A DNA stretch of 64,000 bases from Polyangiaceae bacterium (lineage in GTDB: Bacteria > Myxococcota_A > Polyangia > Polyangiales > Polyangiaceae). Of this stretch, positions 9,210 through 29,954 are shown piece by piece (the stretch's first letter is position 1; each line of letters begins with the position of its first letter). The stretch spans positions 17,735 to 81,734 of the forward strand of contig JAHBVX010000011.1 of NCBI GenBank assembly GCA_019637295.1, written 5' to 3'. Under the pieces are notes generated by a model. The model had not been told where the DNA came from, did not search any database, and was given only the letters and a program-made list of their open reading frames with translations. Position numbers and translations under genes: made by a program.

Positions 9210-12200
9210 ATGAACGAGAACCCATTCCTTCTCAGCCGGCTCGCAGCGCGTGCGGGCGCCGCAGCGTTGGTTGGTCTTGCCGCTCTTGCGGTAGCGGCGC
9301 GCCCCGCCTTGGCCCAGCCCTACGACTGCAACTCGCCCAACCCCGCGATGTGGCCGCCCCCGGCCAAGCCCTACTTCATGGTCGTGGTGGACACCTCGGG
9401 GAGCATGGCGGCGTGTACCAACCCACAGACGGCCTGGCCCCAGACCTGCGCGGACGTCGGCGGTGGCGTCAACAACTCGTGCGGCTGGCAGCCCTTGCGG
9501 GTGAACGACGCCAAGTGCGCGCTGCGGAACACCCTCTGGGCCTTCGCGGGCGAGGCGAACTTCGGGTTGGCGTCCTTCTCTCGCACCCTCACGGGCTGCC
9601 CCTCCGCGTGCAACTGGGGCCAGGTCTGGAACAGCACCTTCTGGTATCGCTACGCCTACAACGGCTGCGGCTTCGGGGGCACCGCCTGCGGCGGCGCCAA
9701 CATGCTGGTCGGCATGCAGCTGGATGCGACGCCGACGCCGCCCAGCAACGTCCCCTCCATGGTCGAGTACATGGATCACAACTGCGGCGACAACAAGGAG
9801 CTGTTCGCCTACGACGCCACGCCCATCGGCGCGTCGCTGCAGAACGTTCGGACCTATTTCCAGAGCGGGCTCCCCGGCTTCCCGTCGCCCCTCAACGCCC
9901 AAGATCCCGCCTGCCGCTCCCTGAACGTCATCCTGATGACGGACGGCGGCGAGACCTGCAGCGGTGACCCGGTCACCGCGGCTCAGCAGCTCTACACCGG
10001 CTTCACCAAGGACGGGATCTTCAGGCGCATTTACACTCACGTCATCGCCTTCAACGTGGATGCTCCAGCGGATCAAACCCTGCTGAACAACGTGCACAAG
10101 ATGGGCCAGTGCGGGACCACGACCGGGGCCTGCGCGAACGCCGTGAGCGCCATTCAGGCCAGCGACGAGGTGTCTCTGTCGCAGGCCTTCGCCACGATCA
10201 TCTCCGGCGCGGTGAAGCCGGAGACCTGCAACAACGCGGACGACAACTGCAACGGCTGCATCGACGAGGGCTACGCGCGGTACTGCAACGTGAAGCCCGC
10301 AGGGCAGTGCTGTACGTGGGGCAACCCGACGCAGCGCAACACCTGCCTGACGAACTACCAGAACTCGATCACGCCGAGCAACCCGCAGGGGAACGTGGCG
10401 CTCTTGCCGTGCACGACGGTGGCGCAGTCGCAGAACCCGGCGACGTGGCTGTGCTTCAACCCGGGCGAGCTGTGCGACGACGCGGACAACAACTGCAACG
10501 GGCAGACGGACGAGACCTTCAACAAGTGCGGCAACCCGCTGAAGTGCCCCGGTCCGGAGCTGTGCAACGGCGAGGACGACGACTGCGACGGCATCATCGA
10601 CAACGCGGCGGGCAGCGGCGTCCCCTACAGCGCGTGTCCCAACCAGTGCCAGCCGAGCGCGGAGATCTGCGACGGCTGCGACAACAACTGCAACGGGATC
10701 GCGGACGACGGGGTGGCGGACATCCCGTGCGGCTTCTCGCCGCCGGGCAACTGCGCGGGCGTGCGCACGTGCGTGAGCAAGGGGGTGGCGGTGCCGGTGG
10801 GCGGGTGCGTCGGGCCAACCGCGCCGAAGGGCTTCGGAGCGTGCTCGAACACGCCGCAGCCGGAGATCTGCGACGGGCTGGACAACAACTGTAACGGCAC
10901 GGTGGACGAGGGGATCGCGCCTGGGGCGTGCGAGATCCCTGGTCAGCCCGGGCTGAAGTACCAGGAAGACGGCTTCCCGCTGAGCCAGTGCAAGAAGGGG
11001 ATCTTGCCGTGCAACGGGACGTGCAGCGGTTGGACGGGACCGAGCGCGGAGATTTGCGACGGCATCGACAACGACTGCGACGGGATCGTGGACAACAACA
11101 TCCCGGGTCTGGGTCAGGAGTGCGGGCTGGCGACGGGCCAGTGCAGCAAGGGTCAGACGGCGTGCGTGGGCGGAGTGATCGTGTGCCAGGGCGGGACGCA
11201 GCCGCAGCCGGAGATCTGCGACGGCCTGGACAACGACTGCGACGGGACGACGGACAACGCGCCGATGGTGGACCAGCCGAGCAACCCGGGTTGCTGGAGC
11301 CTGCCGGCGACGGGGTGCAGTCCGACCTGCAGCCACCAGAACGTGTCGTGGTGTCCGCCGGCGGGCGGGACGTGCACGGGGACGGGTACGCTGAGCACGC
11401 CGTGCCAGACGGGTACGCTGGTGTGCGACGGAGCAAACCAGTGGAAGTGCCAGGGCGGAGTGGTGCCGACGGCGGAGGTGTGCGACGGGGTGGACAACAA
11501 CTGCAACAGCCAGGTGGACGAGAGCCTGGGCGCGCCGGTGGGCCAGTCCTGCGGGTCGAGCGTTGGGGAGTGCTCTCCGGGCGTGAACGTGTGCGTGAGC
11601 GGAGTGATCCAGTGCCAGGGCGGGCAAGGTCCGACGCCGGAGGTGTGTGACGGACTGGACAACGACTGCGATGGCGACATCGACAACGGCATCCCGCTGG
11701 GTGGGGCGTGCACGCCGGTGTACGACACGAACCTGTACCCCGGGGATCGGACGAAGGGCGTGTGCAAGCCGGGGGTGCTGGCGTGCGACGGGCAGGGCGG
11801 GACGGTGTGCGTTGGCGGCGTGGGCCCGAGCGCGGAGATCTGCGACGGAGTGGACAACGACTGCGACGGCCAGGTGGACGAGCCCGGGCCTGCCCCGGAC
11901 GGGATCAACGGGACGGAGGACCCGCTGCAGCCCGGGGTGAAGATCGGGGACGCTTGCGGGACGAGCGTTGGGGAGTGCAAGCCCGGGCAGTACGCCTGCG
12001 CGGGCGGGAAGTTCGTGTGCCTGGGCGGAGTGGGTCCGAACCCCGAGGTGTGCGACTGCCTGGACAACGACTGCGACGGCCAGGTGGACAACGAGCCGGC
12101 GGCGGGTTCGCTGTGCAGCACGGGCAAGACGTGTGTGGCGGTGGCTGGAGGGAACTGCCAGTGCGCGGAGCCGTGCGCGGGCGGAGAGTTCCCGTGCCCG

Positions 12201-13196
12201 ACGAGCTTCGAGTGCAAGAACGTGACGAAGAGCGGGACGGGTCAGGCCCTCGGTGACTACTGCGTGAACGACGGCTGCGGGGACTGCACGACGAAGACGG
12301 TGAAGGACCAGCAGACGGGGGTGACGCTGTGTGGTCCGGAGGGAACGGCGGGCAGCAAGCCCGAGTGCGTGTGCAAGGCGAACAAGTGCCAGCACCCGTG
12401 CGCGAACATCCAGTGCCCGACGGGTCAAGAGTGCGCGCTGCAGGGGTCGAGCGCTGGGACGTGCCAGCCGACGGGCAACTGCTTCTTCTTCGGCTGCGAC
12501 GCGGGCGAGGTGTGCAACGGCGGGGTGTGCGTGGCCGACCCGTGCACGCCGAACCCGTGCCAGGCGGACGAGGTGTGCAAGCCGAACGCGACCTTCAGCG
12601 AGCCACGCTGCGTGGGGTCGTGCGCGAGCGTGACGTGTCCGACTGGGCAGCAGTGCGTGGAGGGACAGTGCGAGGAGACGGGCTGCGCGCAGGGCTGCGC
12701 GCCGGGCGAGGTGTGCCAGCCCACGGGTGATGGCGGCTACGCTTGCGGCCCGAACCAGTGCGCGACGGACGCGGGTCAGCCGTGCAGCAACGGCGCGTGG
12801 TGCAACCCGGCGACGGGCGCGTGCGGCAACGAGCCCTGCGAGGGTGTGGTTTGCCCGGTCGCGCAGCTGTGCGCCGAGGGTCAGTGCATCTGGGCGCCCG
12901 AGGGCGGCGCGGGCACCGGCGGCAGCGGCACCGGCGGCAGCGGCACCGGCGGCAGCGGCACCGGCGGCGCCGGACCGGACGCGGGCCTGGGCGGCGGAAG
13001 TGGCGGAAACATCAGCGTTCCGACCACCGACCCCGAGCGCGGGGTCTGGGGCCTGGCCACCGGCGGCGGCGGCTGCGCCTGCCGCGCGGCCGGGACCGAC
13101 CGGCGCACGCCGCTCGGCGCGGCCTTGGCATTCGGCGCTCTGGCGGTCGCTCTTGGCTTCCGCCGGCGACGCCGAGGTGCTCTTCTAGGAGGCTGA
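9210..13196 (+). CDS. giant secreted surface protein, paralog A: VWA/MIDAS-like head, 11 CDGxDNDCDGxxDE metal-binding-type repeats, Cys-rich EGF-like stalk, (GTGGS)n linker, MYXO-CTERM
   Basis: 1328 aa with signal peptide ...LAALAVAARPALAQ. The head carries PYFMVVVDTSGSM (a DxSGS MIDAS motif) and NVILMTDGGETCSGD. The repeats include EICDGIDNDCDGIVDN and EVCDGLDNDCDGDIDNG. The C-terminus is GGGGCACRAAG...ALAVALGFRRRRRG. Confidence 0.9.
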   Translation: MNENPFLLSRLAARAGAAALVGLAALAVAARPALAQPYDCNSPNPAMWPPPAKPYFMVVVDTSGSMAACTNPQTAWPQTCADVGGGVNNSCGWQPLRVNDAKCALRNTLWAFAGEANFGLASFSRTLTGCPSACNWGQVWNSTFWYRYAYNGCGFGGTACGGANMLVGMQLDATPTPPSNVPSMVEYMDHNCGDNKELFAYDATPIGASLQNVRTYFQSGLPGFPSPLNAQDPACRSLNVILMTDGGETCSGDPVTAAQQLYTGFTKDGIFRRIYTHVIAFNVDAPADQTLLNNVHKMGQCGTTTGACANAVSAIQASDEVSLSQAFATIISGAVKPETCNNADDNCNGCIDEGYARYCNVKPAGQCCTWGNPTQRNTCLTNYQNSITPSNPQGNVALLPCTTVAQSQNPATWLCFNPGELCDDADNNCNGQTDETFNKCGNPLKCPGPELCNGEDDDCDGIIDNAAGSGVPYSACPNQCQPSAEICDGCDNNCNGIADDGVADIPCGFSPPGNCAGVRTCVSKGVAVPVGGCVGPTAPKGFGACSNTPQPEICDGLDNNCNGTVDEGIAPGACEIPGQPGLKYQEDGFPLSQCKKGILPCNGTCSGWTGPSAEICDGIDNDCDGIVDNNIPGLGQECGLATGQCSKGQTACVGGVIVCQGGTQPQPEICDGLDNDCDGTTDNAPMVDQPSNPGCWSLPATGCSPTCSHQNVSWCPPAGGTCTGTGTLSTPCQTGTLVCDGANQWKCQGGVVPTAEVCDGVDNNCNSQVDESLGAPVGQSCGSSVGECSPGVNVCVSGVIQCQGGQGPTPEVCDGLDNDCDGDIDNGIPLGGACTPVYDTNLYPGDRTKGVCKPGVLACDGQGGTVCVGGVGPSAEICDGVDNDCDGQVDEPGPAPDGINGTEDPLQPGVKIGDACGTSVGECKPGQYACAGGKFVCLGGVGPNPEVCDCLDNDCDGQVDNEPAAGSLCSTGKTCVAVAGGNCQCAEPCAGGEFPCPTSFECKNVTKSGTGQALGDYCVNDGCGDCTTKTVKDQQTGVTLCGPEGTAGSKPECVCKANKCQHPCANIQCPTGQECALQGSSAGTCQPTGNCFFFGCDAGEVCNGGVCVADPCTPNPCQADEVCKPNATFSEPRCVGSCASVTCPTGQQCVEGQCEETGCAQGCAPGEVCQPTGDGGYACGPNQCATDAGQPCSNGAWCNPATGACGNEPCEGVVCPVAQLCAEGQCIWAPEGGAGTGGSGTGGSGTGGSGTGGAGPDAGLGGGSGGNISVPTTDPERGVWGLATGGGGCACRAAGTDRRTPLGAALAFGALAVALGFRRRRRGALLGG
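10207..13177 (+). repeat. direct repeat copy 1 (about 2.97 kb, near-identical to 14367..17337)
   Basis: Line-by-line comparison at a constant 4160-nt offset. I saw substitutions only at 10226, 10268, 10271, 10314, 10466, 10637, 10640, 10644, 10646 and 13160. Alternate-frame ORFs in the track are identical between copies (for example 11153..12217 versus 15313..16377). Confidence 0.95.
12912..12968 (+). repeat. in-frame 15-nt tandem repeat ggcaccggcggcagc (about 3.8 units) encoding a (GTGGS)n linker
   Basis: Read directly: ggcaccggcggcagc x3, then ggcaccggcggcgcc. It translates to GTGGSGTGGSGTGGSGTGGA. Confidence 0.9.
13062..13196 (+). other. MYXO-CTERM-type sorting tag (tag 2 of 5)
   Basis: GGGGCACRAAGTDRRTPLGAALAFGALAVALGFRRRRRGALLGG-stop. 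Confidence 0.8.
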
Positions 13197-13216: not shown

Positions 13217-16200
13217 ATGATGCAGAAGCACACAGTGCGAGCGACCAGTCGGCGCAGGCTCGGGTTCTGGGCGGCAGCAGCGGCCAGCGGGGTGGCAGCC
13301 TTGGCCCTGTGCAGCCCACGATCGGCCGCAGCGCAACCCTACGACTGCAACTCGCCCAACCCTGCGATGTGGCCGCCGCCGGCGAAGCCCTACTTCATGC
13401 TCCTGGTCGACACGTCGGGCAGCATGGTGGGGTGCACCAACCCCTCCACCTCGAACTACCAGTTTCCGAACTCGTGTCCCAGCACCGCGCCGCAGAACTC
13501 CTGCGGCATGGAGCCTACCCGCATCAACGACGCCAAGTGTGCGCTCCGGCAGACCGTGCAGGCGTTCGCCGGCGAGGTGAACTTCGGCCTGGCGACCTTC
13601 CCGGTCAACCTCGCGGGCTGCGGGAACGGAGCGTGCGTGGACACCTGCACGGCGGCCAGTGGCTCGTGCACGCTCTCCGGCGGCGTGGGTACCTCCGGCG
13701 AGTACCACGCCGGCAACGGCTGCTCGGTCACCGGCTACACGAACACGAGCGATGGCGCGAGCTGCGGCAACTTCCCGAGCTGCGGTCCCGCCGGTCCCGC
13801 CGCCCCCAACTTGGCCAAGGGCACCTGGCGCAACGGCGGCAAGATCGTGGTCGACATGCTGCGCGACACCACCCCCCCCGGAGCCAGCAACGTGGCCACC
13901 CTGCTCGAGTGGTTCGACGGCAACTGCAACAACAGCCGAGAGCTGTTCGCGATCGGGGGCACGCCCATCGGCGGGTCCCTGCGCACCATTCACCAGTACT
14001 TCCTCGCCGGTTGGAACTCCGGCTGGCACACGACGAACTACTGCGCCAGCGGGCTGTCCTACACGAGCCCCACCCCCATGGACCCCGCGGACCCGCAGTG
14101 CCGCAACTTGAACGTCATCCTGGTGACGGACGGCGACCCGAGCTGCGGAGACACCGTGGCCTCGTCCGTCAGCGCGGCGCAGGCGCTCTTCCAGCAGGGA
14201 GTCACCTTTGGGGGCAAGAACTTCCCCGTGCGGACCCACGTCATCAACTTCGCTGGTGGCGTCCAGTCCACCACGGACCAGATCGCGGCGGCGGGCGGCA
14301 CGGTGGCGTCACTCTCGGCCAACAACGAGGTCACCCTCGCGCAGGCGCTCTCGACGATCATCGCGAGCGCGGTGAAGCCGGAGACGTGCAACAACGCGGA
14401 CGACAACTGCAACGGCTGCATCGACGAAGGTTACGCGCGGTACTGCAACGTGAAGCCCGCAGGGCAGTGCTGTGCGTGGGGCAACCCGACGCAGCGCAAC
14501 ACCTGCCTGACGAACTACCAGAACTCGATCACGCCGAGCAACCCGCAGGGGAACGTGGCGCTCTTGCCGTGCACGACGGTGGCGCAGTCGCAGAACCCGG
14601 CGACGTGGCTGTGCTTCAACCCGGGGGAGCTGTGCGACGACGCGGACAACAACTGCAACGGGCAGACGGACGAGACCTTCAACAAGTGCGGCAACCCGCT
14701 GAAGTGCCCCGGTCCGGAGCTGTGCAACGGCGAGGACGACGACTGCGACGGCATCATCGACAACGCGGCGGGCAGCGGCGTCCCCTACAGCGCGTGCCCA
14801 AACAATTGCCAGCCGAGCGCGGAGATCTGCGACGGCTGCGACAACAACTGCAACGGGATCGCGGACGACGGGGTGGCGGACATCCCGTGCGGCTTCTCGC
14901 CGCCGGGCAACTGCGCGGGCGTGCGCACGTGCGTGAGCAAGGGGGTGGCGGTGCCGGTGGGCGGGTGCGTCGGGCCAACCGCGCCGAAGGGCTTCGGAGC
15001 GTGCTCGAACACGCCGCAGCCGGAGATCTGCGACGGGCTGGACAACAACTGTAACGGCACGGTGGACGAGGGGATCGCGCCTGGGGCGTGCGAGATCCCT
15101 GGTCAGCCCGGGCTGAAGTACCAGGAAGACGGCTTCCCGCTGAGCCAGTGCAAGAAGGGGATCTTGCCGTGCAACGGGACGTGCAGCGGTTGGACGGGAC
15201 CGAGCGCGGAGATTTGCGACGGCATCGACAACGACTGCGACGGGATCGTGGACAACAACATCCCGGGTCTGGGTCAGGAGTGCGGGCTGGCGACGGGCCA
15301 GTGCAGCAAGGGTCAGACGGCGTGCGTGGGCGGAGTGATCGTGTGCCAGGGCGGGACGCAGCCGCAGCCGGAGATCTGCGACGGCCTGGACAACGACTGC
15401 GACGGGACGACGGACAACGCGCCGATGGTGGACCAGCCGAGCAACCCGGGTTGCTGGAGCCTGCCGGCGACGGGGTGCAGTCCGACCTGCAGCCACCAGA
15501 ACGTGTCGTGGTGTCCGCCGGCGGGCGGGACGTGCACGGGGACGGGTACGCTGAGCACGCCGTGCCAGACGGGTACGCTGGTGTGCGACGGAGCAAACCA
15601 GTGGAAGTGCCAGGGCGGAGTGGTGCCGACGGCGGAGGTGTGCGACGGGGTGGACAACAACTGCAACAGCCAGGTGGACGAGAGCCTGGGCGCGCCGGTG
15701 GGCCAGTCCTGCGGGTCGAGCGTTGGGGAGTGCTCTCCGGGCGTGAACGTGTGCGTGAGCGGAGTGATCCAGTGCCAGGGCGGGCAAGGTCCGACGCCGG
15801 AGGTGTGTGACGGACTGGACAACGACTGCGATGGCGACATCGACAACGGCATCCCGCTGGGTGGGGCGTGCACGCCGGTGTACGACACGAACCTGTACCC
15901 CGGGGATCGGACGAAGGGCGTGTGCAAGCCGGGGGTGCTGGCGTGCGACGGGCAGGGCGGGACGGTGTGCGTTGGCGGCGTGGGCCCGAGCGCGGAGATC
16001 TGCGACGGAGTGGACAACGACTGCGACGGCCAGGTGGACGAGCCCGGGCCTGCCCCGGACGGGATCAACGGGACGGAGGACCCGCTGCAGCCCGGGGTGA
16101 AGATCGGGGACGCTTGCGGGACGAGCGTTGGGGAGTGCAAGCCCGGGCAGTACGCCTGCGCGGGCGGGAAGTTCGTGTGCCTGGGCGGAGTGGGTCCGAA

Positions 16201-17389
16201 CCCCGAGGTGTGCGACTGCCTGGACAACGACTGCGACGGCCAGGTGGACAACGAGCCGGCGGCGGGTTCGCTGTGCAGCACGGGCAAGACGTGTGTGGCG
16301 GTGGCTGGAGGGAACTGCCAGTGCGCGGAGCCGTGCGCGGGCGGAGAGTTCCCGTGCCCGACGAGCTTCGAGTGCAAGAACGTGACGAAGAGCGGGACGG
16401 GTCAGGCCCTCGGTGACTACTGCGTGAACGACGGCTGCGGGGACTGCACGACGAAGACGGTGAAGGACCAGCAGACGGGGGTGACGCTGTGTGGTCCGGA
16501 GGGAACGGCGGGCAGCAAGCCCGAGTGCGTGTGCAAGGCGAACAAGTGCCAGCACCCGTGCGCGAACATCCAGTGCCCGACGGGTCAAGAGTGCGCGCTG
16601 CAGGGGTCGAGCGCTGGGACGTGCCAGCCGACGGGCAACTGCTTCTTCTTCGGCTGCGACGCGGGCGAGGTGTGCAACGGCGGGGTGTGCGTGGCCGACC
16701 CGTGCACGCCGAACCCGTGCCAGGCGGACGAGGTGTGCAAGCCGAACGCGACCTTCAGCGAGCCACGCTGCGTGGGGTCGTGCGCGAGCGTGACGTGTCC
16801 GACTGGGCAGCAGTGCGTGGAGGGACAGTGCGAGGAGACGGGCTGCGCGCAGGGCTGCGCGCCGGGCGAGGTGTGCCAGCCCACGGGTGATGGCGGCTAC
16901 GCTTGCGGCCCGAACCAGTGCGCGACGGACGCGGGTCAGCCGTGCAGCAACGGCGCGTGGTGCAACCCGGCGACGGGCGCGTGCGGCAACGAGCCCTGCG
17001 AGGGTGTGGTTTGCCCGGTCGCGCAGCTGTGCGCCGAGGGTCAGTGCATCTGGGCGCCCGAGGGCGGCGCGGGCACCGGCGGCAGCGGCACCGGCGGCAG
17101 CGGCACCGGCGGCAGCGGCACCGGCGGCGCCGGACCGGACGCGGGCCTGGGCGGCGGAAGTGGCGGAAACATCAGCGTTCCGACCACCGACCCCGAGCGC
17201 GGGGTCTGGGGCCTGGCCACCGGCGGCGGCGGCTGCGCCTGCCGCGCGGCCGGGACCGACCGGCGCACGCCGCTCGGCGCGGCCTTGGCATTCGGCGCTC
17301 TGGCGGTCGCTCTTGGCTTGCGCCGGCGACGCCGAGGCCCCTCGAGAGACGAAACGGTCGACGGCATGACTGAAGGAGACGCGCGATGA
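13217..17389 (+). CDS. giant secreted surface protein, paralog B: divergent VWA/MIDAS-like head, with stalk and MYXO-CTERM almost identical to paralog A
   Basis: In-frame ATG at 13217 (MMQKHTVRATSRRRLGFWAAAAASGVAALALC...AAAQ) within ORF 12743..17389, giving 1390 aa. The head has PYFMLLVDTSGSM and NVILVTDGDPSCGD. From AVKPETCNNADDNCNG onward it matches paralog A. The C-terminus is GGGGCACRAAG...ALGLRRRRRG plus a 16-aa tail. Confidence 0.9.
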   Translation: MMQKHTVRATSRRRLGFWAAAAASGVAALALCSPRSAAAQPYDCNSPNPAMWPPPAKPYFMLLVDTSGSMVGCTNPSTSNYQFPNSCPSTAPQNSCGMEPTRINDAKCALRQTVQAFAGEVNFGLATFPVNLAGCGNGACVDTCTAASGSCTLSGGVGTSGEYHAGNGCSVTGYTNTSDGASCGNFPSCGPAGPAAPNLAKGTWRNGGKIVVDMLRDTTPPGASNVATLLEWFDGNCNNSRELFAIGGTPIGGSLRTIHQYFLAGWNSGWHTTNYCASGLSYTSPTPMDPADPQCRNLNVILVTDGDPSCGDTVASSVSAAQALFQQGVTFGGKNFPVRTHVINFAGGVQSTTDQIAAAGGTVASLSANNEVTLAQALSTIIASAVKPETCNNADDNCNGCIDEGYARYCNVKPAGQCCAWGNPTQRNTCLTNYQNSITPSNPQGNVALLPCTTVAQSQNPATWLCFNPGELCDDADNNCNGQTDETFNKCGNPLKCPGPELCNGEDDDCDGIIDNAAGSGVPYSACPNNCQPSAEICDGCDNNCNGIADDGVADIPCGFSPPGNCAGVRTCVSKGVAVPVGGCVGPTAPKGFGACSNTPQPEICDGLDNNCNGTVDEGIAPGACEIPGQPGLKYQEDGFPLSQCKKGILPCNGTCSGWTGPSAEICDGIDNDCDGIVDNNIPGLGQECGLATGQCSKGQTACVGGVIVCQGGTQPQPEICDGLDNDCDGTTDNAPMVDQPSNPGCWSLPATGCSPTCSHQNVSWCPPAGGTCTGTGTLSTPCQTGTLVCDGANQWKCQGGVVPTAEVCDGVDNNCNSQVDESLGAPVGQSCGSSVGECSPGVNVCVSGVIQCQGGQGPTPEVCDGLDNDCDGDIDNGIPLGGACTPVYDTNLYPGDRTKGVCKPGVLACDGQGGTVCVGGVGPSAEICDGVDNDCDGQVDEPGPAPDGINGTEDPLQPGVKIGDACGTSVGECKPGQYACAGGKFVCLGGVGPNPEVCDCLDNDCDGQVDNEPAAGSLCSTGKTCVAVAGGNCQCAEPCAGGEFPCPTSFECKNVTKSGTGQALGDYCVNDGCGDCTTKTVKDQQTGVTLCGPEGTAGSKPECVCKANKCQHPCANIQCPTGQECALQGSSAGTCQPTGNCFFFGCDAGEVCNGGVCVADPCTPNPCQADEVCKPNATFSEPRCVGSCASVTCPTGQQCVEGQCEETGCAQGCAPGEVCQPTGDGGYACGPNQCATDAGQPCSNGAWCNPATGACGNEPCEGVVCPVAQLCAEGQCIWAPEGGAGTGGSGTGGSGTGGSGTGGAGPDAGLGGGSGGNISVPTTDPERGVWGLATGGGGCACRAAGTDRRTPLGAALAFGALAVALGLRRRRRGPSRDETVDGMTEGDAR
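14367..17337 (+). repeat. direct repeat copy 2 (about 2.97 kb, near-identical to 10207..13177)
   Basis: Same comparison as copy 1. Identity begins at gcgcggtgaagccggagac and ends after gccgagg (17337). Confidence 0.95.
17072..17128 (+). repeat. same 15-nt tandem repeat in paralog B
   Basis: Identical sequence at a +4160 nt offset. Confidence 0.9.
17222..17389 (+). other. MYXO-CTERM-type sorting tag (tag 3 of 5) with an extra acidic tail
   Basis: GGGGCACRAAGTDRRTPLGAALAFGALAVALGLRRRRRGPSRDETVDGMTEGDAR-stop. Confidence 0.75.
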
Positions 17390-20300
17390 AGTGGCTAACA
17401 GCAGCCCTGGTCTCGAGTACGGTGCTCGCGTTGGCGGTAGCGCCGGCCTGCACGACCTCGAGCTTCTGCTTCGAGGATTGTGACGGTGACGGCGGCAAGG
17501 GGACCGGCGGCACAGGCGACGGAGGTCTGTGGGACGGCCAGGTCATCGACGGCGCGTCAGGCGACACGGGCGTCATCGGCATCGACACCGGCACGGGCGA
17601 CGCGTGCGTCGCGACGAACAACGGCGTCGAGATTTGTGATGGTATCGACAACGACTGCAACGGAGTCATCGACGACGGGTTCGACTTCACCAAGACCCAG
17701 AGCTGCGGCACCTGCGACAACAACTGCGCCCTGGGCGCGAGCGCCCCGGTGAACGTCGTGAACCCGAGCTGCGACCCACCGTCGACCACGGACGGCACCG
17801 TCGCGGGCACCTGCAAGTGGGAGAAGTGTGCCCAGGATTTCTACGATATCGACAAAGGCAAGCCGGGAGAGATCCTGGGCTGCGAGTATCAGTGCCCCTG
17901 GAACCCGGACGGTACGGTCACCGTGGACACCGGCGGGTCGGAGGGCTGCGGACGGGACGACGACTGCGACGGCTTGATCGACGAGGACCTGAACACCTGC
18001 GACGACATCGACAACTGCGGCAAGTGCGGCAAGCCCTGCGTCATCCCCAACGGGACGGCCAAGTGCACGACGACCGCGCAGCAGGGGCAGCAGTGTACCG
18101 AGGCCAACACCAAGTGCGAGATCGCGTCGTGTGACGCGGGCTACCACGACGCCGACAAGGCGGCGGGCAACGGCTGCGAGTACCAGTGCACACCCACCGG
18201 TCCCGAGATCTGCGACGGCATCGACAACGACTGCGACGGTAAGATCGACAACACCGACGACAGCCTCGAGGTCGACGACCCCAACGTCGGCCAGACCTGC
18301 CAGGGTGGGGTCAACGGCATCTGCGCCGACCCGGCCAACGCCGGCGTCAAGAAGTGCATCGGGGGCCAGATCAGCTGCTGCGACGTGGGCTCGAACAACG
18401 TCAGCTCCACCAACCCCAACCTGCCGGTCACCGGCCTCCGCAACGGCGTGTGTAGCGCTCCGACTGGCCCCAAGGTCATCAAGCCCGGGGACGTGCAGGA
18501 GACCTGCAACAACAAGGACGACGACTGCGACGGGGTCGTGGACGACTCACCCATCGACCAGGGCGGAACTTGTGGCAGCACCGTCGGCAGCTGCCAGGCC
18601 GGTACCCAGCAGTGTCAGAGTGGCGCGCTGGTGTGCGTGGGCAACACCGTTCCCGCTGCCGAAATCTGCAACGGCCAGGACAACAACTGCGACGGCGTGA
18701 TCGACGGCATCATGGTGACCCCGGTGGTCGCGTGCACCCAGGACGCGCAGTGTTCGGGCAGCGCCAGGTGCATGATCCGCTCGGGTCCCACGGACCGCGT
18801 GTGTGCGCTGCGGCCCACGGACGTGGGCACCACCTGCGACACCTTCCCACCGCCGCCCGCGGGTTACACCTCGCCCTGCCAGGCGGGCACGCTGGCCTGC
18901 GTGGGTGGCGTGAAGGTGTGTCAGGGCTCGATCAAGCCGAACGCCGTCTCCGACACCTGCGGCCAGGACACCAACTGCAACGGCGTGTACGAGGGACCGA
19001 CGCCGCAGCAGATGCAGACGGACGTCAAGAACTGCGGGAGTTGCGGCAACGACTGCGGCCAGATCTCGCCCGGCGGCCACGGCGTGTGGGCGTGTCAGGC
19101 CGGCCAGTGCGTGCGCACCGGCTGCGAGGCGAACTACATCAACTGCGACGGCAACAACAACGACTGCGAGCGCTTCTGCACCTTCGTGTCGGCGAACGAG
19201 CAGTGCAACGGCATCGACGACAACTGCAACTGCCAGGTGGACGAGAACATCACCGCCGTGCCCAGCCCGGTGTCCGTCTGCGGCGTCGCGGCGGCCGCGA
19301 ATGATCCTGGGTGCCTGCCCCGCCACCCCACGACCAACCCCACGGGTGTACAGGTCAGCTGCAACAACGGCGGTTGGCAGTGCTCGTTCACCAGCGGGTA
19401 CTGCTCGGGCAGTCCGCCGGACTGCTCCACCACCGTGGACACCTGCGACAACAAGGACAACAACTGCAACGGCGCCACGGACGAGAGCTTCAAGCCTCCG
19501 ATCTTGAATCAAGGTTACGTGGGCCAACAGTGCGCGAGCGACGACGGCCTCCCCGCGCCCGGCCACGGTCAGTGCCGGACTCAGGGACAGTTCGTGTGCA
19601 CGAGCGCTACCACGACCGGGTGCAACGCTACGAAGAACAACGCCGCCGCGGGCACGGAGCTGTGCGACGGAGTGGACAACGACTGCGACGGCCTAGTGGA
19701 CGAGCCCTTCACCAACAAGGGCACCAACACCACGCACTTCGTGCGGCCCGCGGTGACTCAGCTCGCGACCAACCTGTGGATGACGCAGTACGAGGTCAGC
19801 CGCCCGGGGGCCACCAACGTCAATCCGGGTAACGGCAACGGCTACCAGACCGCGGCACCGACGGGCGTCACGCTGGACCGGGTGCAGGGCTGCTCGGTCG
19901 CGGGTGTCATCCCCTGGTTCAACGTCACGCCGGTCGAGGCTCAACAGGTCTGCGCGGCGCGCGGAGGCCGGTTGTGCTCCACCGGGGAGTGGCAGACCGC
20001 GTGCCGGACGCCCAGCAACGCCTGCACCTGGGGCTACAACCCGCGCACGGGCTCTCCGGCTCCATGTACGCTGGCTGGGACGTATACAGCGGGCACGGGC
20101 CGAGTGTGCAACATCGGGCCCTTCGACTTCGACGGCAACCCGGTCAACGGAGTCACCAACGGCCTGTTGCCGACGGCGTCGGCGTCGCTGCAAAACTGCT
20201 GGGCGGACTGGGCCGGCAGCACCGGCAACACGGCGGCGTTCAACAACATCCGCGACATCACCGGCAACCTCGGCGAGATCGTCCAACACTCGGGCACGAA

Positions 20301-20469
20301 CTGCGGCGCCGTGAACAACACCTGCGTCTACAAGGTGATGGGTGGTGGGTTCAACACGGCGGCGGAGAGCGGCGCGACCTGCAACTTCACGTTCTACAGC
20401 GTCGACAAGGACTTCAAGCTCTACGACGCCGGCTTCCGCTGCTGCTTCACCAGCAACCCGACCCTCTGA
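17386..20469 (+). CDS. Cys-rich probable lipoprotein with about 10 CDGxDNDCDG-type repeats and a C-terminal FGE/SUMF1-like (C-type-lectin fold) domain
   Basis: 1027 aa. ATG 17386 overlaps the paralog B stop as ATGA. N-terminus MKWLTAALVSSTVLALAVAPAC. Repeats include EICDGIDNDCNGVIDDG, EICDGIDNDCDGKIDN and ELCDGVDNDCDGLVDEP. The last roughly 250 aa are FGE-sulfatase-like (LWMTQYEVSRPGA, VPWFNVTPVEAQQVCAARGGRLCSTGEWQTAC, ITGNLGEIV, GGGFN, DAGFRCCF). Confidence 0.85.
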   Translation: MKWLTAALVSSTVLALAVAPACTTSSFCFEDCDGDGGKGTGGTGDGGLWDGQVIDGASGDTGVIGIDTGTGDACVATNNGVEICDGIDNDCNGVIDDGFDFTKTQSCGTCDNNCALGASAPVNVVNPSCDPPSTTDGTVAGTCKWEKCAQDFYDIDKGKPGEILGCEYQCPWNPDGTVTVDTGGSEGCGRDDDCDGLIDEDLNTCDDIDNCGKCGKPCVIPNGTAKCTTTAQQGQQCTEANTKCEIASCDAGYHDADKAAGNGCEYQCTPTGPEICDGIDNDCDGKIDNTDDSLEVDDPNVGQTCQGGVNGICADPANAGVKKCIGGQISCCDVGSNNVSSTNPNLPVTGLRNGVCSAPTGPKVIKPGDVQETCNNKDDDCDGVVDDSPIDQGGTCGSTVGSCQAGTQQCQSGALVCVGNTVPAAEICNGQDNNCDGVIDGIMVTPVVACTQDAQCSGSARCMIRSGPTDRVCALRPTDVGTTCDTFPPPPAGYTSPCQAGTLACVGGVKVCQGSIKPNAVSDTCGQDTNCNGVYEGPTPQQMQTDVKNCGSCGNDCGQISPGGHGVWACQAGQCVRTGCEANYINCDGNNNDCERFCTFVSANEQCNGIDDNCNCQVDENITAVPSPVSVCGVAAAANDPGCLPRHPTTNPTGVQVSCNNGGWQCSFTSGYCSGSPPDCSTTVDTCDNKDNNCNGATDESFKPPILNQGYVGQQCASDDGLPAPGHGQCRTQGQFVCTSATTTGCNATKNNAAAGTELCDGVDNDCDGLVDEPFTNKGTNTTHFVRPAVTQLATNLWMTQYEVSRPGATNVNPGNGNGYQTAAPTGVTLDRVQGCSVAGVIPWFNVTPVEAQQVCAARGGRLCSTGEWQTACRTPSNACTWGYNPRTGSPAPCTLAGTYTAGTGRVCNIGPFDFDGNPVNGVTNGLLPTASASLQNCWADWAGSTGNTAAFNNIRDITGNLGEIVQHSGTNCGAVNNTCVYKVMGGGFNTAAESGATCNFTFYSVDKDFKLYDAGFRCCFTSNPTL

Positions 20470-20533: not shown

Positions 20534-21568
20534 ATGGCGAGGATGTCGAAGCCGCGGAGGTCCGGATACCGGGTGCTGGCCCCAAAGGAGGTCCGCTCGG
20601 ACGACCGCGAGCTCGCGTACGAGGTGTTGGTGGGGCTGTCCGAGCACCCCAAGCGCTTACCGTCGCGGCTCTTCTATGACGACGAGGGTAGCCGACTGTT
20701 TCAGCGCATCATGGCGCTCGGCGAGTACTACCTGACGGACTGCGAGCGCGAGATCCTGGAAGCACACAAGGGAGACCTGGCGGACGTGGTCGCGGCCGAG
20801 CCCGTCAACGTGGTCGATCTCGGCGCCGGCGACGGAGAGAAGACCTTCATCCTGCTCGACCACCTGGGCAAGCGCAGCATCGAGCATCGCTACGTACCCA
20901 TCGACATCTCCGAGGGAGCGATGAGTGCGCTGGTGGAGCGCGTGACGGCGCGGCTGCCGCACCTGGACGTCGAGGGCATCATCGCGGAGTACTCGGATGG
21001 CCTCGAGGCGCTGGCCCAGGCCGAGTCCAGCCGTCGCAACTTGGTGCTGTTCTTGGGGTCCAACATCGGCAACTTCGATCGTGCCCGATCGCGCGCGTTC
21101 TTGCGCCGGCTGTGGAACGCGCTGAACCCCGGCGACTTGCTGCTGATCGGCTTCGATCTGAAGAAGGACATCGACCTGTTGCTCCGCGCGTACAACGACC
21201 GCGAGGGCGTGACCGCCGCGTTCAATCTGAACCTGCTCACGCGCCTGAACCGAACTCTGGGAGCGCAGTTCGACATCGACAAGTTTCGACACTTCGGCAC
21301 CTACGACGTGTTCAGCGGTGCCATGCAGAGCTATCTGGTGAGCCTCGAGCGCCAGTTGATCGAGATCAGCCAGCTGTCGCTGGCGTTCCAGTTCGAGCCT
21401 TGGGAGCCCATTCACACCGAGTACTCGTACAAGTACCTGCGCTCGGACGTGACCACCCTGGCCAAGGACACGGGTTTCTCGATCCAGGCGGAGTTCTTGG
21501 ATGACAAGCGCTGGTTTCTCGACTCGCTCTGGCGGGTGGAGAAGGCGCCCACGGCGATGCCGAGCTAG
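20534..21568 (+). CDS. EgtD-family SAM-dependent (histidine N-alpha-type) methyltransferase
   Basis: In-frame ATG at 20534 within ORF 20342..21568, giving 344 aa. Family motifs seen: LPSRLFYDDEGSRLFQRIMALGEYYLTDCEREIL, VDLGAGDGEKT, YVPIDISEGAM, FLGSNIGNF and IHTEYSYKY. Confidence 0.82.
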   Translation: MARMSKPRRSGYRVLAPKEVRSDDRELAYEVLVGLSEHPKRLPSRLFYDDEGSRLFQRIMALGEYYLTDCEREILEAHKGDLADVVAAEPVNVVDLGAGDGEKTFILLDHLGKRSIEHRYVPIDISEGAMSALVERVTARLPHLDVEGIIAEYSDGLEALAQAESSRRNLVLFLGSNIGNFDRARSRAFLRRLWNALNPGDLLLIGFDLKKDIDLLLRAYNDREGVTAAFNLNLLTRLNRTLGAQFDIDKFRHFGTYDVFSGAMQSYLVSLERQLIEISQLSLAFQFEPWEPIHTEYSYKYLRSDVTTLAKDTGFSIQAEFLDDKRWFLDSLWRVEKAPTAMPS

Positions 21569-21673: not shown

Positions 21674-23473
21674 ATGGCACGGAAACTCGGCTCGGTTCTC
21701 GCGGCATCTTGCCTGACTCTGCTCGCTGGCAGCGCCAGCGCCCAGCAGCTTCGCTTCACCAAGACGACCACCGGAGGGCTCGCGGTCACCGGCAACACCC
21801 TCGGGCTCAGCAAGGCGCTCGACCAGAACGGCCCTGGCACGCGGGACTCCATCGGGACCTTCATCGCGCTCGATCCCACCAGCGTGGACAACGTCCCGCT
21901 GAGCTCATCCAACCCCTGGCCCGCGGGCACCACCTGGGACTGGACCAAGAACGGCTCGACCAACACGCTGTCCCTGCCTGCCGGCGCCACGGTCGAGTAC
22001 GCCGAGCTGATCTGGGCTGGGAGCTATCAGTACGTGACCGACGTCAGCGCGCACCTGGGCACAGCGGTGACGCTACGCGCGGGCGGCGCGTCGGTGTCGG
22101 TCCCCCCGAGCACTGCCACCGCGCTGACCATCGCCCAGCAGTCCACCACCGGGTTCTTCGCGAACTACTACATGCGCTCGGCGGATGTGACCAGCTTCGT
22201 CGCGTCTCAGGGAGCCGGGGCCTACACCGTCTCCGGCGTGCCCGCGACGGAGGACACCACCATCAACAGCCTCAACGCCGCGGGTTGGACGTTGGTCGTC
22301 GCCTACACCGCGAGCGCGTCGCCCGCGCGCAACATCAGCATCTTCGTGGGCGGCAGCTTCGTGGACGAGAACTCGCAGCAGGACTACACCTTCAGCGGCT
22401 TCTGCACTCCACCCGCTGGGCCGGTGGAGGGGACCGCGATCGTCACCGCCCTGGAGGGCGACGCGAACCTGACCGGGGATCAGCTGCTGATCGGCCAGAC
22501 CACCGGCGGCAGCTTCGTGAACCTCTCGGCCCCGAACAACCCGGCGAACAATTTCTTCGCGTCACAGATCAACGGAGCGAGCGGCCAGCTGGACACTGGC
22601 GGCAGCTTCGGCACCGTGAATCACGACGCCGCGGGCGGCGTGAACGTGTCCGGCGCTCGGCAGGGTTGGGACTTGACCACGGTGCAGCTCAGCTCTGCGG
22701 ACGGCAAGCTCGCCAACGGCCAGACGAGCGCCGTGCTGCGCAACATCACCACCGGTGACTCCTACGTGCCGGTGCTCGGCGCGTTCACCATCGACGTGAC
22801 CGCTCCCGACTTCTCCGACGGATCGTCGCTCCTCACCAGCACCCAAGTGGTCACGGACGGCGATACGTTCACCGTCACCGCGGTGATCAAGAACTCTGGC
22901 GACGTCCCCGCGGACATCGAGTTCGTGATGCCGCTCGACTCGGGCCTCTCGCTGGCGGGCTACACCACCGACGGCAACAGCGGTGACATCGGCGGTCAAG
23001 CGGTCAGCGGCGGGATGCTCTCCACGGGCGTCGCCGCCGGGACGATCGCCTCCGGCCAGTCGCGCACGGTGGTGCTCACCCTCGACGTCGTCGGGCCGCC
23101 CGCGACGGGCTCGGACTTCCCGGTGGAGGTATCCTGGAACTACAGCTACGTCAGCTGCGTCGGCCAGCCGGCGATCAGCGCGGTGTGGCCCATGCCGTCC
23201 GCCACGGTGAGCTACGAAGCAGCGGCTCCGGACGCGGGGGCTGGCGGCGCCGGCAACGCGGGCGGCGCCGGCGGCAGCGCCGGCGCGGGTGCGAGCGCGG
23301 CCAGCGGCGGCGCCGCCGCCACCGGCGGCGGCGGCAAGGGCGTCCCCGACTCGGGTGACGACGGCAGCTGCGCGTGCAGCGCGCCCGGCGCGGGTCGCTC
23401 GACCGGCGCGTCGCTCCTGGCAGGCTTGGGGATGTTGCTCGGCCTGTGGCGCACGCGCCGTCGTCGCGGGTGA
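21674..23473 (+). CDS. secreted surface protein with a DUF11-like repeat domain and MYXO-CTERM tag
   Basis: 599 aa with signal peptide MARKLGSVLAASCLTLLAGSASAQ. It has a DUF11-like segment (VTDGDTFTVTAVIKNSGDVPADIEFVMPLDSGLSL), an Ala/Gly-rich linker and the C-terminus DDGSCACSAPG...LLGLWRTRRRRG. Confidence 0.8.
   Translation: MARKLGSVLAASCLTLLAGSASAQQLRFTKTTTGGLAVTGNTLGLSKALDQNGPGTRDSIGTFIALDPTSVDNVPLSSSNPWPAGTTWDWTKNGSTNTLSLPAGATVEYAELIWAGSYQYVTDVSAHLGTAVTLRAGGASVSVPPSTATALTIAQQSTTGFFANYYMRSADVTSFVASQGAGAYTVSGVPATEDTTINSLNAAGWTLVVAYTASASPARNISIFVGGSFVDENSQQDYTFSGFCTPPAGPVEGTAIVTALEGDANLTGDQLLIGQTTGGSFVNLSAPNNPANNFFASQINGASGQLDTGGSFGTVNHDAAGGVNVSGARQGWDLTTVQLSSADGKLANGQTSAVLRNITTGDSYVPVLGAFTIDVTAPDFSDGSSLLTSTQVVTDGDTFTVTAVIKNSGDVPADIEFVMPLDSGLSLAGYTTDGNSGDIGGQAVSGGMLSTGVAAGTIASGQSRTVVLTLDVVGPPATGSDFPVEVSWNYSYVSCVGQPAISAVWPMPSATVSYEAAAPDAGAGGAGNAGGAGGSAGAGASAASGGAAATGGGGKGVPDSGDDGSCACSAPGAGRSTGASLLAGLGMLLGLWRTRRRRG
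23357..23473 (+). other. MYXO-CTERM-type sorting tag (tag 4 of 5)
   Basis: DDGSCACSAPGAGRSTGASLLAGLGMLLGLWRTRRRRG-stop. Confidence 0.8.
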
Positions 23474-24992: not shown

Positions 24993-27900
24993 CTAGTCGA
25001 GGTCGATGCTGCCCCAGCCGTTGAACGGGCCGTAACCGACCATGTTCGCGAGCTGAACGGAGGCGTCGAGCAGGCCGACGAAGTTGCGGTACTGGTTCAG
25101 GTAGTACGCGCTGCGTAGGATGGGCTGGTCGTTGGCGTCCAGCAGGACGGTGACCTGCCCGAAGCTGTCCAGCGTGGGGTTGTTCGGGCCGCCCTGAACC
25201 TCGTAGGCGCGAGCGAGGATGAGGTTCGCGGTGCGCAGCATGCGCGAGCCGATCCCCTTGTCCACGGTCCTGCCGTCCACCACGTCGTCGCCGTACTTGC
25301 GAGCGATGTAGGTGAAGCCGCTCTCCGGGTTGTAGAAGCGCGCCTGCTGGGCGGTCGGGACGTTGAACTCACCGAACTGGCCGTCGACCCAGATGCGCAT
25401 CTTGTTGGACAGGTTCAGGTCGCCGTTCAGCCGCGCGAAGATGTGCCCGAAGATGAGCGTGCCGACCTGCTGCTTGTAGCCCACGTTCGGGAACAGCAGC
25501 CGGGCGCCCGCCGGGCGGGTCGGGTTGTCGCCGAACAGGTTCGTGATCTGCACCGGCGCCGTCGAGATGGCGCTGCCGCCCTGGACGAAGGGCGCGATGG
25601 TCTCGAAGTCACCCGACAGCACGCCGCCCAGCAGGCGGTCGATGGCATCGGGCATGTCGGTGCGGAAGTTCACGTTCACGTTGCGGCCGTCGAGGTAGTT
25701 CTCGCGCGAGATGGTGAAGAACACCGCTCGGCCGTCGGTCAGGGCGCGGGAGGCGTCCGACTTCTCGAACGTGTAGCCCGCGTGGTTGACGTAGCTCTGG
25801 TAGTCCCAGGAGCCGCCGCCGTAGGGACCCTGCTCGAAGTCGGGGTCGATGTAGCGCCCGGTGGAGGCGTCCACCAACAGGCTCTTGGACCCGGCGTTGC
25901 CGCAGTCCGAGTCGAGCAGCGCCCGAACCTGACCCGGACCGACCTCGCACGGACCGTACGAGCCGATCTGGGGCATGAGGAAGGCCCGAACGATGGCGTT
26001 GAAGATGTCGTTCGAGGCCATGGCCTGAGGACGGTTCCAGTCGTCCGAGTCACCCAGGATCTTGTAGATGCCGCGGTTGATCTCGTCCACCTGCTTGGGC
26101 GAGTAGCCCTGGCTGACCGCGAAGGGCTCGTCCGGCGACACCAGGGCGCCGAGGCGGCCCACGTCGATGGCCATGCTCCAGTGGAACGCGCGCAGGCGCT
26201 CGTAGAAACCACGCGAGATGCGCGAGGGGATGCTGAAGTACGCCCAGTCGCGGCTCTGGCGCCGGAAGTAGGTGAAGGGGTACTGGTAGTCGAACTTCTC
26301 GATGGTCGACTTGGTGACCTCGTAGATGTCCGCGCCGGCGTCGGACGGGTTCGTGTGGGGGTACGAGTTGCTCGTCACACCCCAGCGGTAGGGCCAGCGA
26401 ACCGCGCCGGGAGCCGTGCGGGCGTCGGGACGCACGCGCCACTTGAGCAGATCATCGGACACGCTGGCGGTGCCCGGCTTGCCGTTCTCGAAGTCGTACC
26501 AGGACGCGTAGTCCTTGGGCGGGGCCGCGCACACCTTGCCGTGCACGATGCGCCACTGCGCCGTCTCGCGCTCGTCTCCGGTCGCGTCACGGCAGCGGGC
26601 GGGATCGAACGCCTTGAGGCGACGGGCCTGCTCCGTGTAGTGCATGCCCTGCAGGAAGGCGTTCTGGAAGCCGAGCGCCGAGGCGGGCACGGTTGGACCG
26701 CCGGTGACCGGGATGGGCTTGTTCAGATCAGGGTTGGCCCACACCACCAAGTTGTCCTCGGTCAGCTGAGTCCAGTTGCGGTACGCGAACGGCAACGTCT
26801 CGGCGTCGGAATAGTGGTCCGGATCGAACACCTGCAGGACGCGGCCATACAGCACGTTCATGGCGAGCATGTCGTACTGACCCAGACCCACGGTCTCGAA
26901 GAACCGCTCGTTCTGGTACTCCATGGTGGAGGTGTGGGCGAAGTAGCTGATGCCGGGGCGCGACTCGGCGCCCTGGCCGAGTTCGTCGTCCGTCTCCGGA
27001 TCGAGGTAGCGCGGGCCCATGCAGTTGTTGCCGTCTGCCTGCGGGTTGCCCTGGCAGTTCTGCGCCGAGCCGCCGGTGCCCTCGCCCGTCAGCGCCGACT
27101 CGTTCGTGCGGAGCTGCCAGTACTGGGGCAGGAAGTTCAGGCTGTCGTAGGACGACGCGAACTGGTGGAGCATACCCAGGGAGTGACCGACCTCGTGCAG
27201 CTGGATGCCCTTGTAGGTCTCCTTCCAGAGCTCGGTGTAGATGAGCTCGGCGCGCTTTTTCGACAGCGTGAGGGCGTCCGCCTCGCCGTACTCCGGCATG
27301 TTCGCCTTGATGTTCGCGTCGCTGTACTTCTCGTAGAAGAAGCGGGACACGCCCTGCACGTCGATGTTGCCCACGTTCTCCGCGTAGATGTCCGGGAAGC
27401 ACACGCCCCGGGCCGCCATGCGCAGATCGATGAGCTGCTGCAGGTACTCCGTGCGGGCGTGATCCATGCCGCGCAGCGGCGAGACCACGTCCATCACCTC
27501 GCTCAGGTCGGTAGTCTTCGGGTTCATGCCGGCGGCGTCCAGCACCCAGTTCGGGGTGACCATCTGCGCCTCGTACACCGAGCCCCGCACCTTCTCGGCG
27601 ATGGCGTCGTACTCGAGATGGGAGGTCGAGGCCGGACCGAGGCCCGCCATCGTCTGCGACGCCATGCGCGTCAGCTCCTCGAGCTTCTGCGAGGGCTTGT
27701 CACCCTTGAGGGGAGCGCCCGCGACCTGCTGAGCGGCGTGGGTCGGGTTGATCGAGTCCACCCGGCGGTTCAGCTCCTCCTTCGTGAAGGTGTCAGGTAC
27801 CCGCCCGTCCTGCAGCCGGCGCTGATACAGCTCGGCGGGGGTGCCGTTGGTGATGTCCTCGAAGGTCAGCTCGCCGTTGGCGACCATGATGATGTCGCGC

Positions 27901-29723: not shown

Positions 29724-29954
29724 CTCCTTACCTCTCACTTTCTCACCGCTGTTTCGAAGCGCGCGCCCCCGCTGCGCGCGCTCCTCGACAAAAGTCTGAA
29801 CCGACGCCACTCAAGCAAGAGCCGAGCCAGGGAGTTGCGAGCGCTAAACCTGCAACAAATGGCGTGGGCCGTGCCGGGTGGGAAGGCGGCGCGGACGGTA
29901 ACCGTTAGAAGGCTAACTCGCAACGACAATGTAGCCGCGCGATGACGCGACGCG

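Follow-up and report, generated by a model that had tools for sequence, protein, structure and literature searches.

Myxobacterial genomes encode dozens of MYXO-CTERM surface proteins, among which, to our knowledge, only TraA is understood. Proteins with this C-terminal signal are sorted to the cell surface by the myxosortase route (PMC11980579), and the TraA/TraB pair of Myxococcus xanthus (PMC3325183, PMC11980579) is one of the described systems with which the locus considered here can be compared. The locus lies in a stretch of 64,000 nucleotides (the window) from a Polyangiaceae bacterium (GCA_019637295.1, contig JAHBVX010000011.1, positions 17,735 to 81,734), in which two genes for giant surface proteins, A and B, are followed by gene C, the subject of this analysis. 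TraA shares with the giants the plan of a head, a Cys-rich stalk and a MYXO-CTERM end and has an obligatory envelope partner encoded in its operon, the place that C would take here. The parts themselves differ, in that TraA carries a PA14-type head and TraB an OmpA domain, whereas the giants have a VWA head with a metal-ion-dependent adhesion site (MIDAS) and C is a stalked lipoprotein ending in a domain that resembles the formylglycine-generating enzyme (FGE); no homology of C to TraB was seen by sequence. In our estimate it is fairly probable that C is one of two subunits, the second, in a module of the cell envelope that Polyangia-type myxobacteria conserve; it would be an obligate surface partner of the giant, made in stoichiometric amounts and equipped with a lectin-like binding domain, and C and the giant probably form one cell-surface binding system of these soil bacteria.

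The end domain of C invites comparison with several further systems. The closest in sequence is pFGE (SUMF2; 1Y4J), the best profile match, which agrees with C in its fold, in the absence of the catalytic Cys pair and in retaining both the GN..E block for calcium binding and the terminal GFRC. It is a soluble eukaryotic protein of the endoplasmic reticulum lumen with about 300 residues, whereas C adds a Cys-rich stalk of 700 residues and a lipid anchor, has a shortened N-terminal subdomain and carries extra disulfides (Cys836, 864, 880, 894, 908, 938 and 1020). PorK/GldK of the type IX secretion system (9MZU, 9OTS; PMC12421860) is, like C, a lipoprotein with an FGE-fold core devoid of the catalytic Cys and with a fixed partner; its fold is non-catalytic and builds a structural ring (PMC12421860). 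Unlike C, it is a protein of Bacteroidota that forms periplasmic rings with PorN, carries insertion domains and has no stalk of MopE repeats, and the partner of C is a VWA/MYXO-CTERM giant. The likeness is one of working principle only. The type IX secretion system is described as confined to the Bacteroidetes-Chlorobi-Fibrobacteres group (PMC12421860), and neither its genes nor PorN appeared among the neighbours scanned, although no search aimed at them was made. Mtd (1YU0-1YU4) and TvpA (2Y3C), both among the top fold matches of C, carry the FGE-type C-type-lectin fold on the tip of an elongated protein, where it serves solely to bind ligands; their last ~40 residues are diversified by retroelements, whereas the end of C ranks with the best-conserved parts of the protein, and no retroelement genes were noted among the open reading frames beside the cassette, for which no dedicated search was made. 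The Tsi3-type immunity proteins of type VI secretion (bioRxiv 10.1101/2021.05.21.445229) are FGE-like envelope proteins without the catalytic Cys that bind another protein; in contrast to C they are small, single-domain and paired with a secreted effector, a context not seen at C. In none of these systems are a MopE stalk and a lipid anchor combined with a dead FGE fold and with coupling to a VWA/MYXO-CTERM giant, and a literature search found nothing on the C family or on pairs of MopE and MYXO-CTERM proteins.

The elements of the locus on which the comparison rests are as follows.

9210-13196, + strand: giant A, the second VWA/MIDAS-headed MYXO-CTERM giant of the run (TIGR03901, 19.6 bits)
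13217-17389, + strand: giant B, with a signal peptide, VWA/MIDAS head (DTSGSM), MopE stalk and MYXO-CTERM; the directly coupled partner of C
17373-17378, + strand: Shine-Dalgarno-like AAGGAG within the 3' end of giant B, 7 nucleotides before the C start, as read from the sequence
17386-17389, + strand: ATGA overlap of the giant B stop and the gene C start (ATG 17386-17388, TGA 17387-17389), a site of translational coupling
17386-20469, + strand: gene C, an open reading frame of 1027 codons

The frame of gene C is real, and its high third-position G+C of 0.91 is typical for genes of this window of ~69% G+C; the gene is single-copy in its own genome. That its start overlaps the stop of giant B had been stated in an initial annotation of the sequence and is confirmed by direct reading. 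The overlap is not a chance event, because the same offset of -4 (ATGA) recurs in 11 of 13 split giant/C junctions of relatives (L001-L003, L046, L048-L051), while both junctions of Polyangium (L004) read GTGATG instead. With the overlap in these relatives goes a GGAG or GAGG 7-9 nucleotides upstream, and in 12 related junctions such a site occupies the equivalent position.

The pairing itself is equally persistent. In all 13 neighbourhoods read (the window, L001-L005, G130 with two loci, G138, G073, G112, G058 and G033), the C homologue adjoins a giant with a signal peptide, a MIDAS motif (DxSGSM), MopE repeats and MYXO-CTERM; outside the window, the loci read were L001-L005, L046-L051 and L053. 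G112, G058 and G033 belong to a more distant family, f17, and G112 contains two tandem pairs. The relatives carry between one and three giants per C, and the assignment of the heads to the VWA family combines the MIDAS motif with a weak VWA_2 match of 16 bits. The proposal that C is a partner of the giants thus receives strong support at the genetic level, from the constancy of the pair, from the usual ATGA junction and from the stop-less frames of 20 genomes described below. Polyangium aurulentum (CP079217, L004:1-12784) has two tandem giant + C pairs, in which both copies of C are 927 residues long and share an identical N-terminus, MSAFAKFGWLATVAGIVLAAAGSGC, and an identical GTGATG junction, which suggests, from sequence comparison, that the whole pair was recently duplicated in this cultivable species. 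Among 151 evenly sampled genomes of the order, the end domain of C is present in 61 (E<=1e-20), with close orthologues above 300 bits in 7; a phylum-wide sample of 251 genomes has it in 16, 9 of them outside the order, where it is accordingly rare.

The coupling of C to a giant extends over several families of the order, and in a fifth of cases it takes the tighter form of a single frame: 20 genomes of the order have giant and C homologue in one stop-less frame of 1,217-3,438 codons.

L054-L059 and L062-L075 (e.g. L055:1067-4951 and L059:1134-4904): giant and C homologue joined in one stop-less frame

All 20 junctions keep a full internal MYXO-CTERM (GGC.C, a hydrophobic helix and RRRR), followed in frame, 16-50 residues further on, by a lipoprotein signal peptide, the lipobox Cys and a DVDPFC-type start of mature C; the Arg-rich tail of the giant doubles as the positive n-region of the C signal peptide. 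A reading of these cases as Rosetta-stone domain fusions was dropped, given that every junction retains both sorting signals. On the tree of C domains the in-frame and split forms are interleaved, with well-supported branches forcing at least 5 changes, and the split G050 and the in-frame G014 are sisters with 100/99 support. Taken together with the retained sorting signals, this interleaving points to selection for making two separately anchored proteins in tight coupling and equimolar amounts, and the frames argue for coupled production, as far as can be judged from sequence, over a single mature chain. The long frames may represent a polyprotein that myxosortase and signal peptidase II process, or may contain an internal start for C; a literature search on internal lipoprotein signals in polyproteins found nothing relevant.

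Protein C is composed of four parts.

17386-17451, + strand: lipoprotein signal peptide, residues 1-22, with the lipobox A-P-A-C, Cys22 and Thr at +2
17452-17604, + strand: Gly/Asp/Thr-rich flexible tether, residues 23-73
17605-19737, + strand: disulfide-rich stalk, residues 74-784, with 8 MopE-type CxxxDxDC repeats among other Cys modules
19738-20466, + strand: FGE-sulfatase-fold (C-type-lectin-like) domain, residues ~785-1027, about 245 residues, without the catalytic Cys pair

The N-terminus of the protein, MKWLTAALVSSTVLALAVAPAC, contains a signal that reads MKWLTAALVSSTVLALAVAPA-C22, whose A-P-A-C lipobox has atypical residues at -3 and -2. All 43 aligned orthologues have Cys22, and a hydrophobic stretch with a lipobox-like motif after it is present in at least 99 of 120 homologues. 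The C-terminus is formed by the FGE-like domain (...GFRCCFTSNPTL) and not by a Cys motif, transmembrane helix and Arg-rich tail, and an NCBIfam search for MYXO-CTERM (TIGR03901) gave no match. The early view that C bears a lipoprotein-like N-terminus instead of a MYXO-CTERM tag holds on all these counts, and the protein would be processed by Lgt and LspA. In the sorting of M. xanthus lipoproteins, the type of residue at +2 bears on release from the inner membrane. Directly after the lipobox Cys, the C homologues have T, Q, D, S or N in most cases and K in few, which by analogy suggests that C is released. The tether is the least conserved part of C (35-60% identity), and residues 1-73 have a predicted local distance difference test (pLDDT) score below 50 in the full-length model, i.e. 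they are modelled as disordered.

The protein contains 91 Cys (8.9% of its residues), most of them within residues 74-784, and in the stalk they are nearly all invariant across the 43 aligned orthologues. A regular expression finds 8 CxxxDxDC[DN] units, to which ~3 degenerate ones can be added, a fair agreement with the roughly ten CDGxDNDCDG-type repeats counted in the initial annotation, and PF11617 matches four stretches with 50.6 bits (cut-off 27, E=2.3e-13), which places C among the MopE-repeat proteins. Residues 200-480 are modelled at pLDDT 80-95; a fold search of the full-length model against the PDB returned no structural match for the stalk. Three modules of the form 'MopE repeat - CGxCxxxC - ... 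- GCEYxC' occur in the stalk of C, and giants A and B are without them. Gene conversion between the stalks of C and A/B was considered and rejected, their identity being only 29%. The stalk and the end domain are conserved alike, at 55-80% identity, with even purifying selection across the whole of C. As the stalk is thus conserved like the domain and has not been homogenised with those of A and B, it is a specific structure in its own right, rather than one copied from the giants.

The C-terminal domain is assigned, from profile and model comparisons, to the FGE-sulfatase/C-type-lectin-like superfamily. Its motifs WMTQYEV (residue 798), GEWQTAC (867), GGGFN (986) and GFRCCF (1016) align with the family blocks YEV.., TEAEWE.., GGS.. 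and GFRC, and the isolated domain matches PF03781 with 21.5 bits and E=2e-4 over model positions 91-253 of 255, just short of the Pfam cut-off. All 10 of the more distant relatives tested (E 1e-8 to 1e-19 to the window domain) pass that cut-off, with 28.7-67.2 bits. A profile of the window domain and its distant relatives, run against solved structures, finds pFGE/SUMF2 (1y4j) at E=3.2e-12 and human FGE at E=2e-9, with further matches to CalU17, CarF, the FGEs of S. coelicolor and T. curvata, and PorK (E=7e-5). The distant relatives are needed in the profile, because the domain sequence alone, searched against PDB sequences, found noise only (a lipoxygenase, E=1.6) and a profile of close orthologues alone found CarF only, at E=0.066. 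The AlphaFold model of the domain (pLDDT 64, predicted template-modelling score 0.69; full-length model, pLDDT 74) matched only FGE, pFGE, CarF, Mtd, TvpA and EgtB in a Foldseek search of the PDB, at probabilities of up to 0.99 and with FGE, pFGE and Mtd on top at 0.97-0.99; the full-length model yields the identical list. The FGE- or lectin-like end proposed at the outset is therefore borne out by profile and transitive evidence, while the hidden Markov model search with the single sequence remained marginally below the family threshold. A word-indexed search with the domain retrieved 250 proteins (lowest E, 1e-137), for which the genomes and metagenomes of origin are all of Polyangiaceae or Sorangiineae type; the 120 of these that were listed are all annotated as PF11617 or 'MopE-related', or as hypothetical only. 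An exhaustive phmmer search of 1.8 billion representatives returned 408 proteins.

The catalytic apparatus of FGE is absent from this domain. The copper-binding C336 and C341 of human FGE align to window residues 990-998 (NTAAESGAT), and no Cys occurs between GGxF and the conserved Cys999 in any of the 112 family members in which the flanking GGxF...C.F blocks could be located (0/112). Since both copper-binding catalytic Cys are missing family-wide, C cannot act as an FGE and is not a sulfatase maturase; the missing pair favours a binding or structural module, in agreement with the preference already expressed in the initial annotation. The structural framework of the fold is preserved. C856, C1019, C873 and C999 align with human C218, C365, C235 and C346, giving the predicted pairs Cys856-Cys1019 and Cys873-Cys999, and N909, N925, D957, G960 and E964 align with N259, D273, N293, G296 and E300. 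We take C218-C365 and C235-C346 to be the structural disulfides of the human enzyme and N259/D273 and N293/G296/E300 to be its calcium sites, which the FGE structure of Dierks et al. (2005) reportedly established. In the 43 orthologues the aligned disulfide Cys are invariant and the calcium-site residues invariant or nearly so; Glu803, Ser805, Arg806, Asn909, Asp957 and Glu964 are invariant across the C-domain family. A docking site for the domain in the form of a sulfatase motif was rejected, as [CS]xPxR occurs in none of 9 giants, nor was it found in 4 C homologues, and no sulfatase was present among the neighbours of C, to which the scan was confined.

The following gene is not part of the system.

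20534-21568, + strand: egtD, 64 nucleotides after C, a true L-histidine methyltransferase (TIGR03438, 304.5 bits, cut-off 290.9)

It adjoins C only in the window and in the closest relative, L001. An ergothioneine-type link between egtD and the FGE-like domain was rejected, given that egtD is absent beside C in L002-L005 and that the true EgtB of the genome lies on another contig (G000:C19:413056-414261, 564 bits against a cut-off of 360). A Pfam search found no DinB domain in C, which places it outside the EgtB/OvoA family.

In the favoured model, the giant and C would be produced in equal amounts through the Shine-Dalgarno sequence and the ATGA coupling, giving two proteins that are lipid-anchored separately, the giant by its C-terminus via MYXO-CTERM and myxosortase and C by its N-terminus. 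Rigid stalks would hold out two distinct binding domains at their tips, VWA/MIDAS on the giant and the FGE-like lectin on C. The latter, catalytically dead and stabilised by calcium, would bind either the MIDAS head or a ligand that this head binds too, and would in this resemble pFGE, PorK and Tsi3 with their non-catalytic FGE folds; in the window genome one C would serve both A and B. A bolder version, which we think unlikely, has the VWA/MIDAS head and the FGE-like domain bind each other or one ligand with their oppositely anchored tips, possibly in trans, and has about one fifth of the relatives make the pair as a polyprotein hairpin that is cut by myxosortase and signal peptidase II. If true, such a back-to-back route, with a MYXO-CTERM helix and a signal peptide forming the hairpin, would be undescribed for bacteria, as far as the literature found extends.

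It has to be noted that several results weigh against a fixed partnership of C with a giant or against the assignment of its domain. The window protein stays below the PF03781 cut-off of 23.3 bits both as a whole (16.2 bits) and as its isolated last 250 residues, and the structure models of the domain are moderate in confidence (pLDDT 64; template-modelling scores of ~0.40-0.46, ~0.45 to FGE). A scan of the region about the 3' end of gene C for promoters and terminators found nothing, so that no such signal marks an operon limit between C and egtD. Of 106 C-domain matches in the 151-genome sample, 45 have an A-type head no more than 14 kb away on their own strand, 20 of them in one frame with it, leaving 61 without such a head nearby when a single sequence is used as the head query, and some members of the C family may work without a giant. 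Five loci, finally, have the reversed order, with the C homologue first and a MIDAS/MYXO-CTERM giant second.

L060:3390-9160: reversed order
L061:2702-8508: reversed order
G074:C3: reversed order
G081:C40: reversed order
G130:C1:100389-102151: reversed order

The alternative that best survives makes C a biogenesis or scaffold factor for the giants, i.e. a periplasm-facing outer-membrane lipoprotein whose FGE-like domain docks the giant during export or anchoring, in the manner of PorK or TraB. The strict genetic coupling with its implied 1:1 production, and the provision of a single C for one to three giants, would suit such a factor, as would the profile match to the PorK lipoprotein, in which the FGE fold is non-catalytic and structural (PMC12421860). 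We consider it unlikely nonetheless, as a rigid stalk of ~700 residues with ~45 disulfides, made of the repeat type of the giants, is hard to fit into the periplasm and suggests display at a distance; moreover, this stalk is conserved like the domain, and C has no homology to known export components.

Decidedly more doubtful is the view of C as a lectin-like adhesin in its own right, which would have an operon in common with the giants but no functional dependence on them. It draws on the domain matches that lack a detected head, on the reversed loci and on the stalk of C that has not been homogenised with those of A and B. The first of these counts is inflated, however, since the insensitive single-sequence query missed the giants of G112, G058 and G033, and 4 of the 61 loci scored as unlinked (two in G112, one in G058 and one in G033) do have MIDAS giants by motif, so that the linkage of 45 in 106 is an underestimate. 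The start/stop overlap is conserved across families, and the repeated, reversible merging into one frame with both sorting signals is hard to explain without selection for coupling. It is most improbable that the domain is an enzyme with some other active site, of the EgtB/OvoA type or PvdO-like, that would modify, in the oxidising envelope, either the giant or a substrate from outside, for although EgtB, OvsA, SenA and CalU17 are among its fold and profile matches and many of its residues are invariant, it lacks the DinB domain and His triad of EgtB as well as the copper-ligand Cys, its genome has a true EgtB elsewhere and a neighbouring egtD that is not conserved, its invariant Asp, Asn and Glu align to structural calcium sites, and its top sequence match is the non-catalytic pFGE.

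If the reading of C as the second subunit of a surface module is right, the locus defines a second conserved two-gene surface module, widespread in one order. The analysis also adds one more case to the growing number in which the FGE fold is reused without catalysis, and gives a fold to a domain that public annotation has left blank. The stop-less junctions would constitute a natural experiment in which two lipid-anchoring pathways act on one precursor, and the predictions could be tested in the cultivable relative P. aurulentum with its two tandem pairs.

Among the other genes of the window, a 1605-residue open reading frame (24993-29810, - strand) has a strong coding bias and no Pfam match at E<=0.001. 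A 599-residue protein (21674-23473, + strand) has a signal peptide, a MYXO-CTERM (TIGR03901, 20.9 bits) and, over the first ~560 residues, no Pfam domain; a similar gene of 600 residues follows the giant + C pair in L004. About 7 kb upstream lies a gene for an Rce1-like CPBP intramembrane protease (PF02517; 1498-2472, + strand), whose best NCBIfam matches are to CPBP proteases of the sorting type (MrtA, 84 bits, cut-off 200) and which could be a myxosortase-type enzyme for the MYXO-CTERM giants. The order of Rce1-like protease, arginine decarboxylase, SLT, WYL, giant and C is found in L003 as well.

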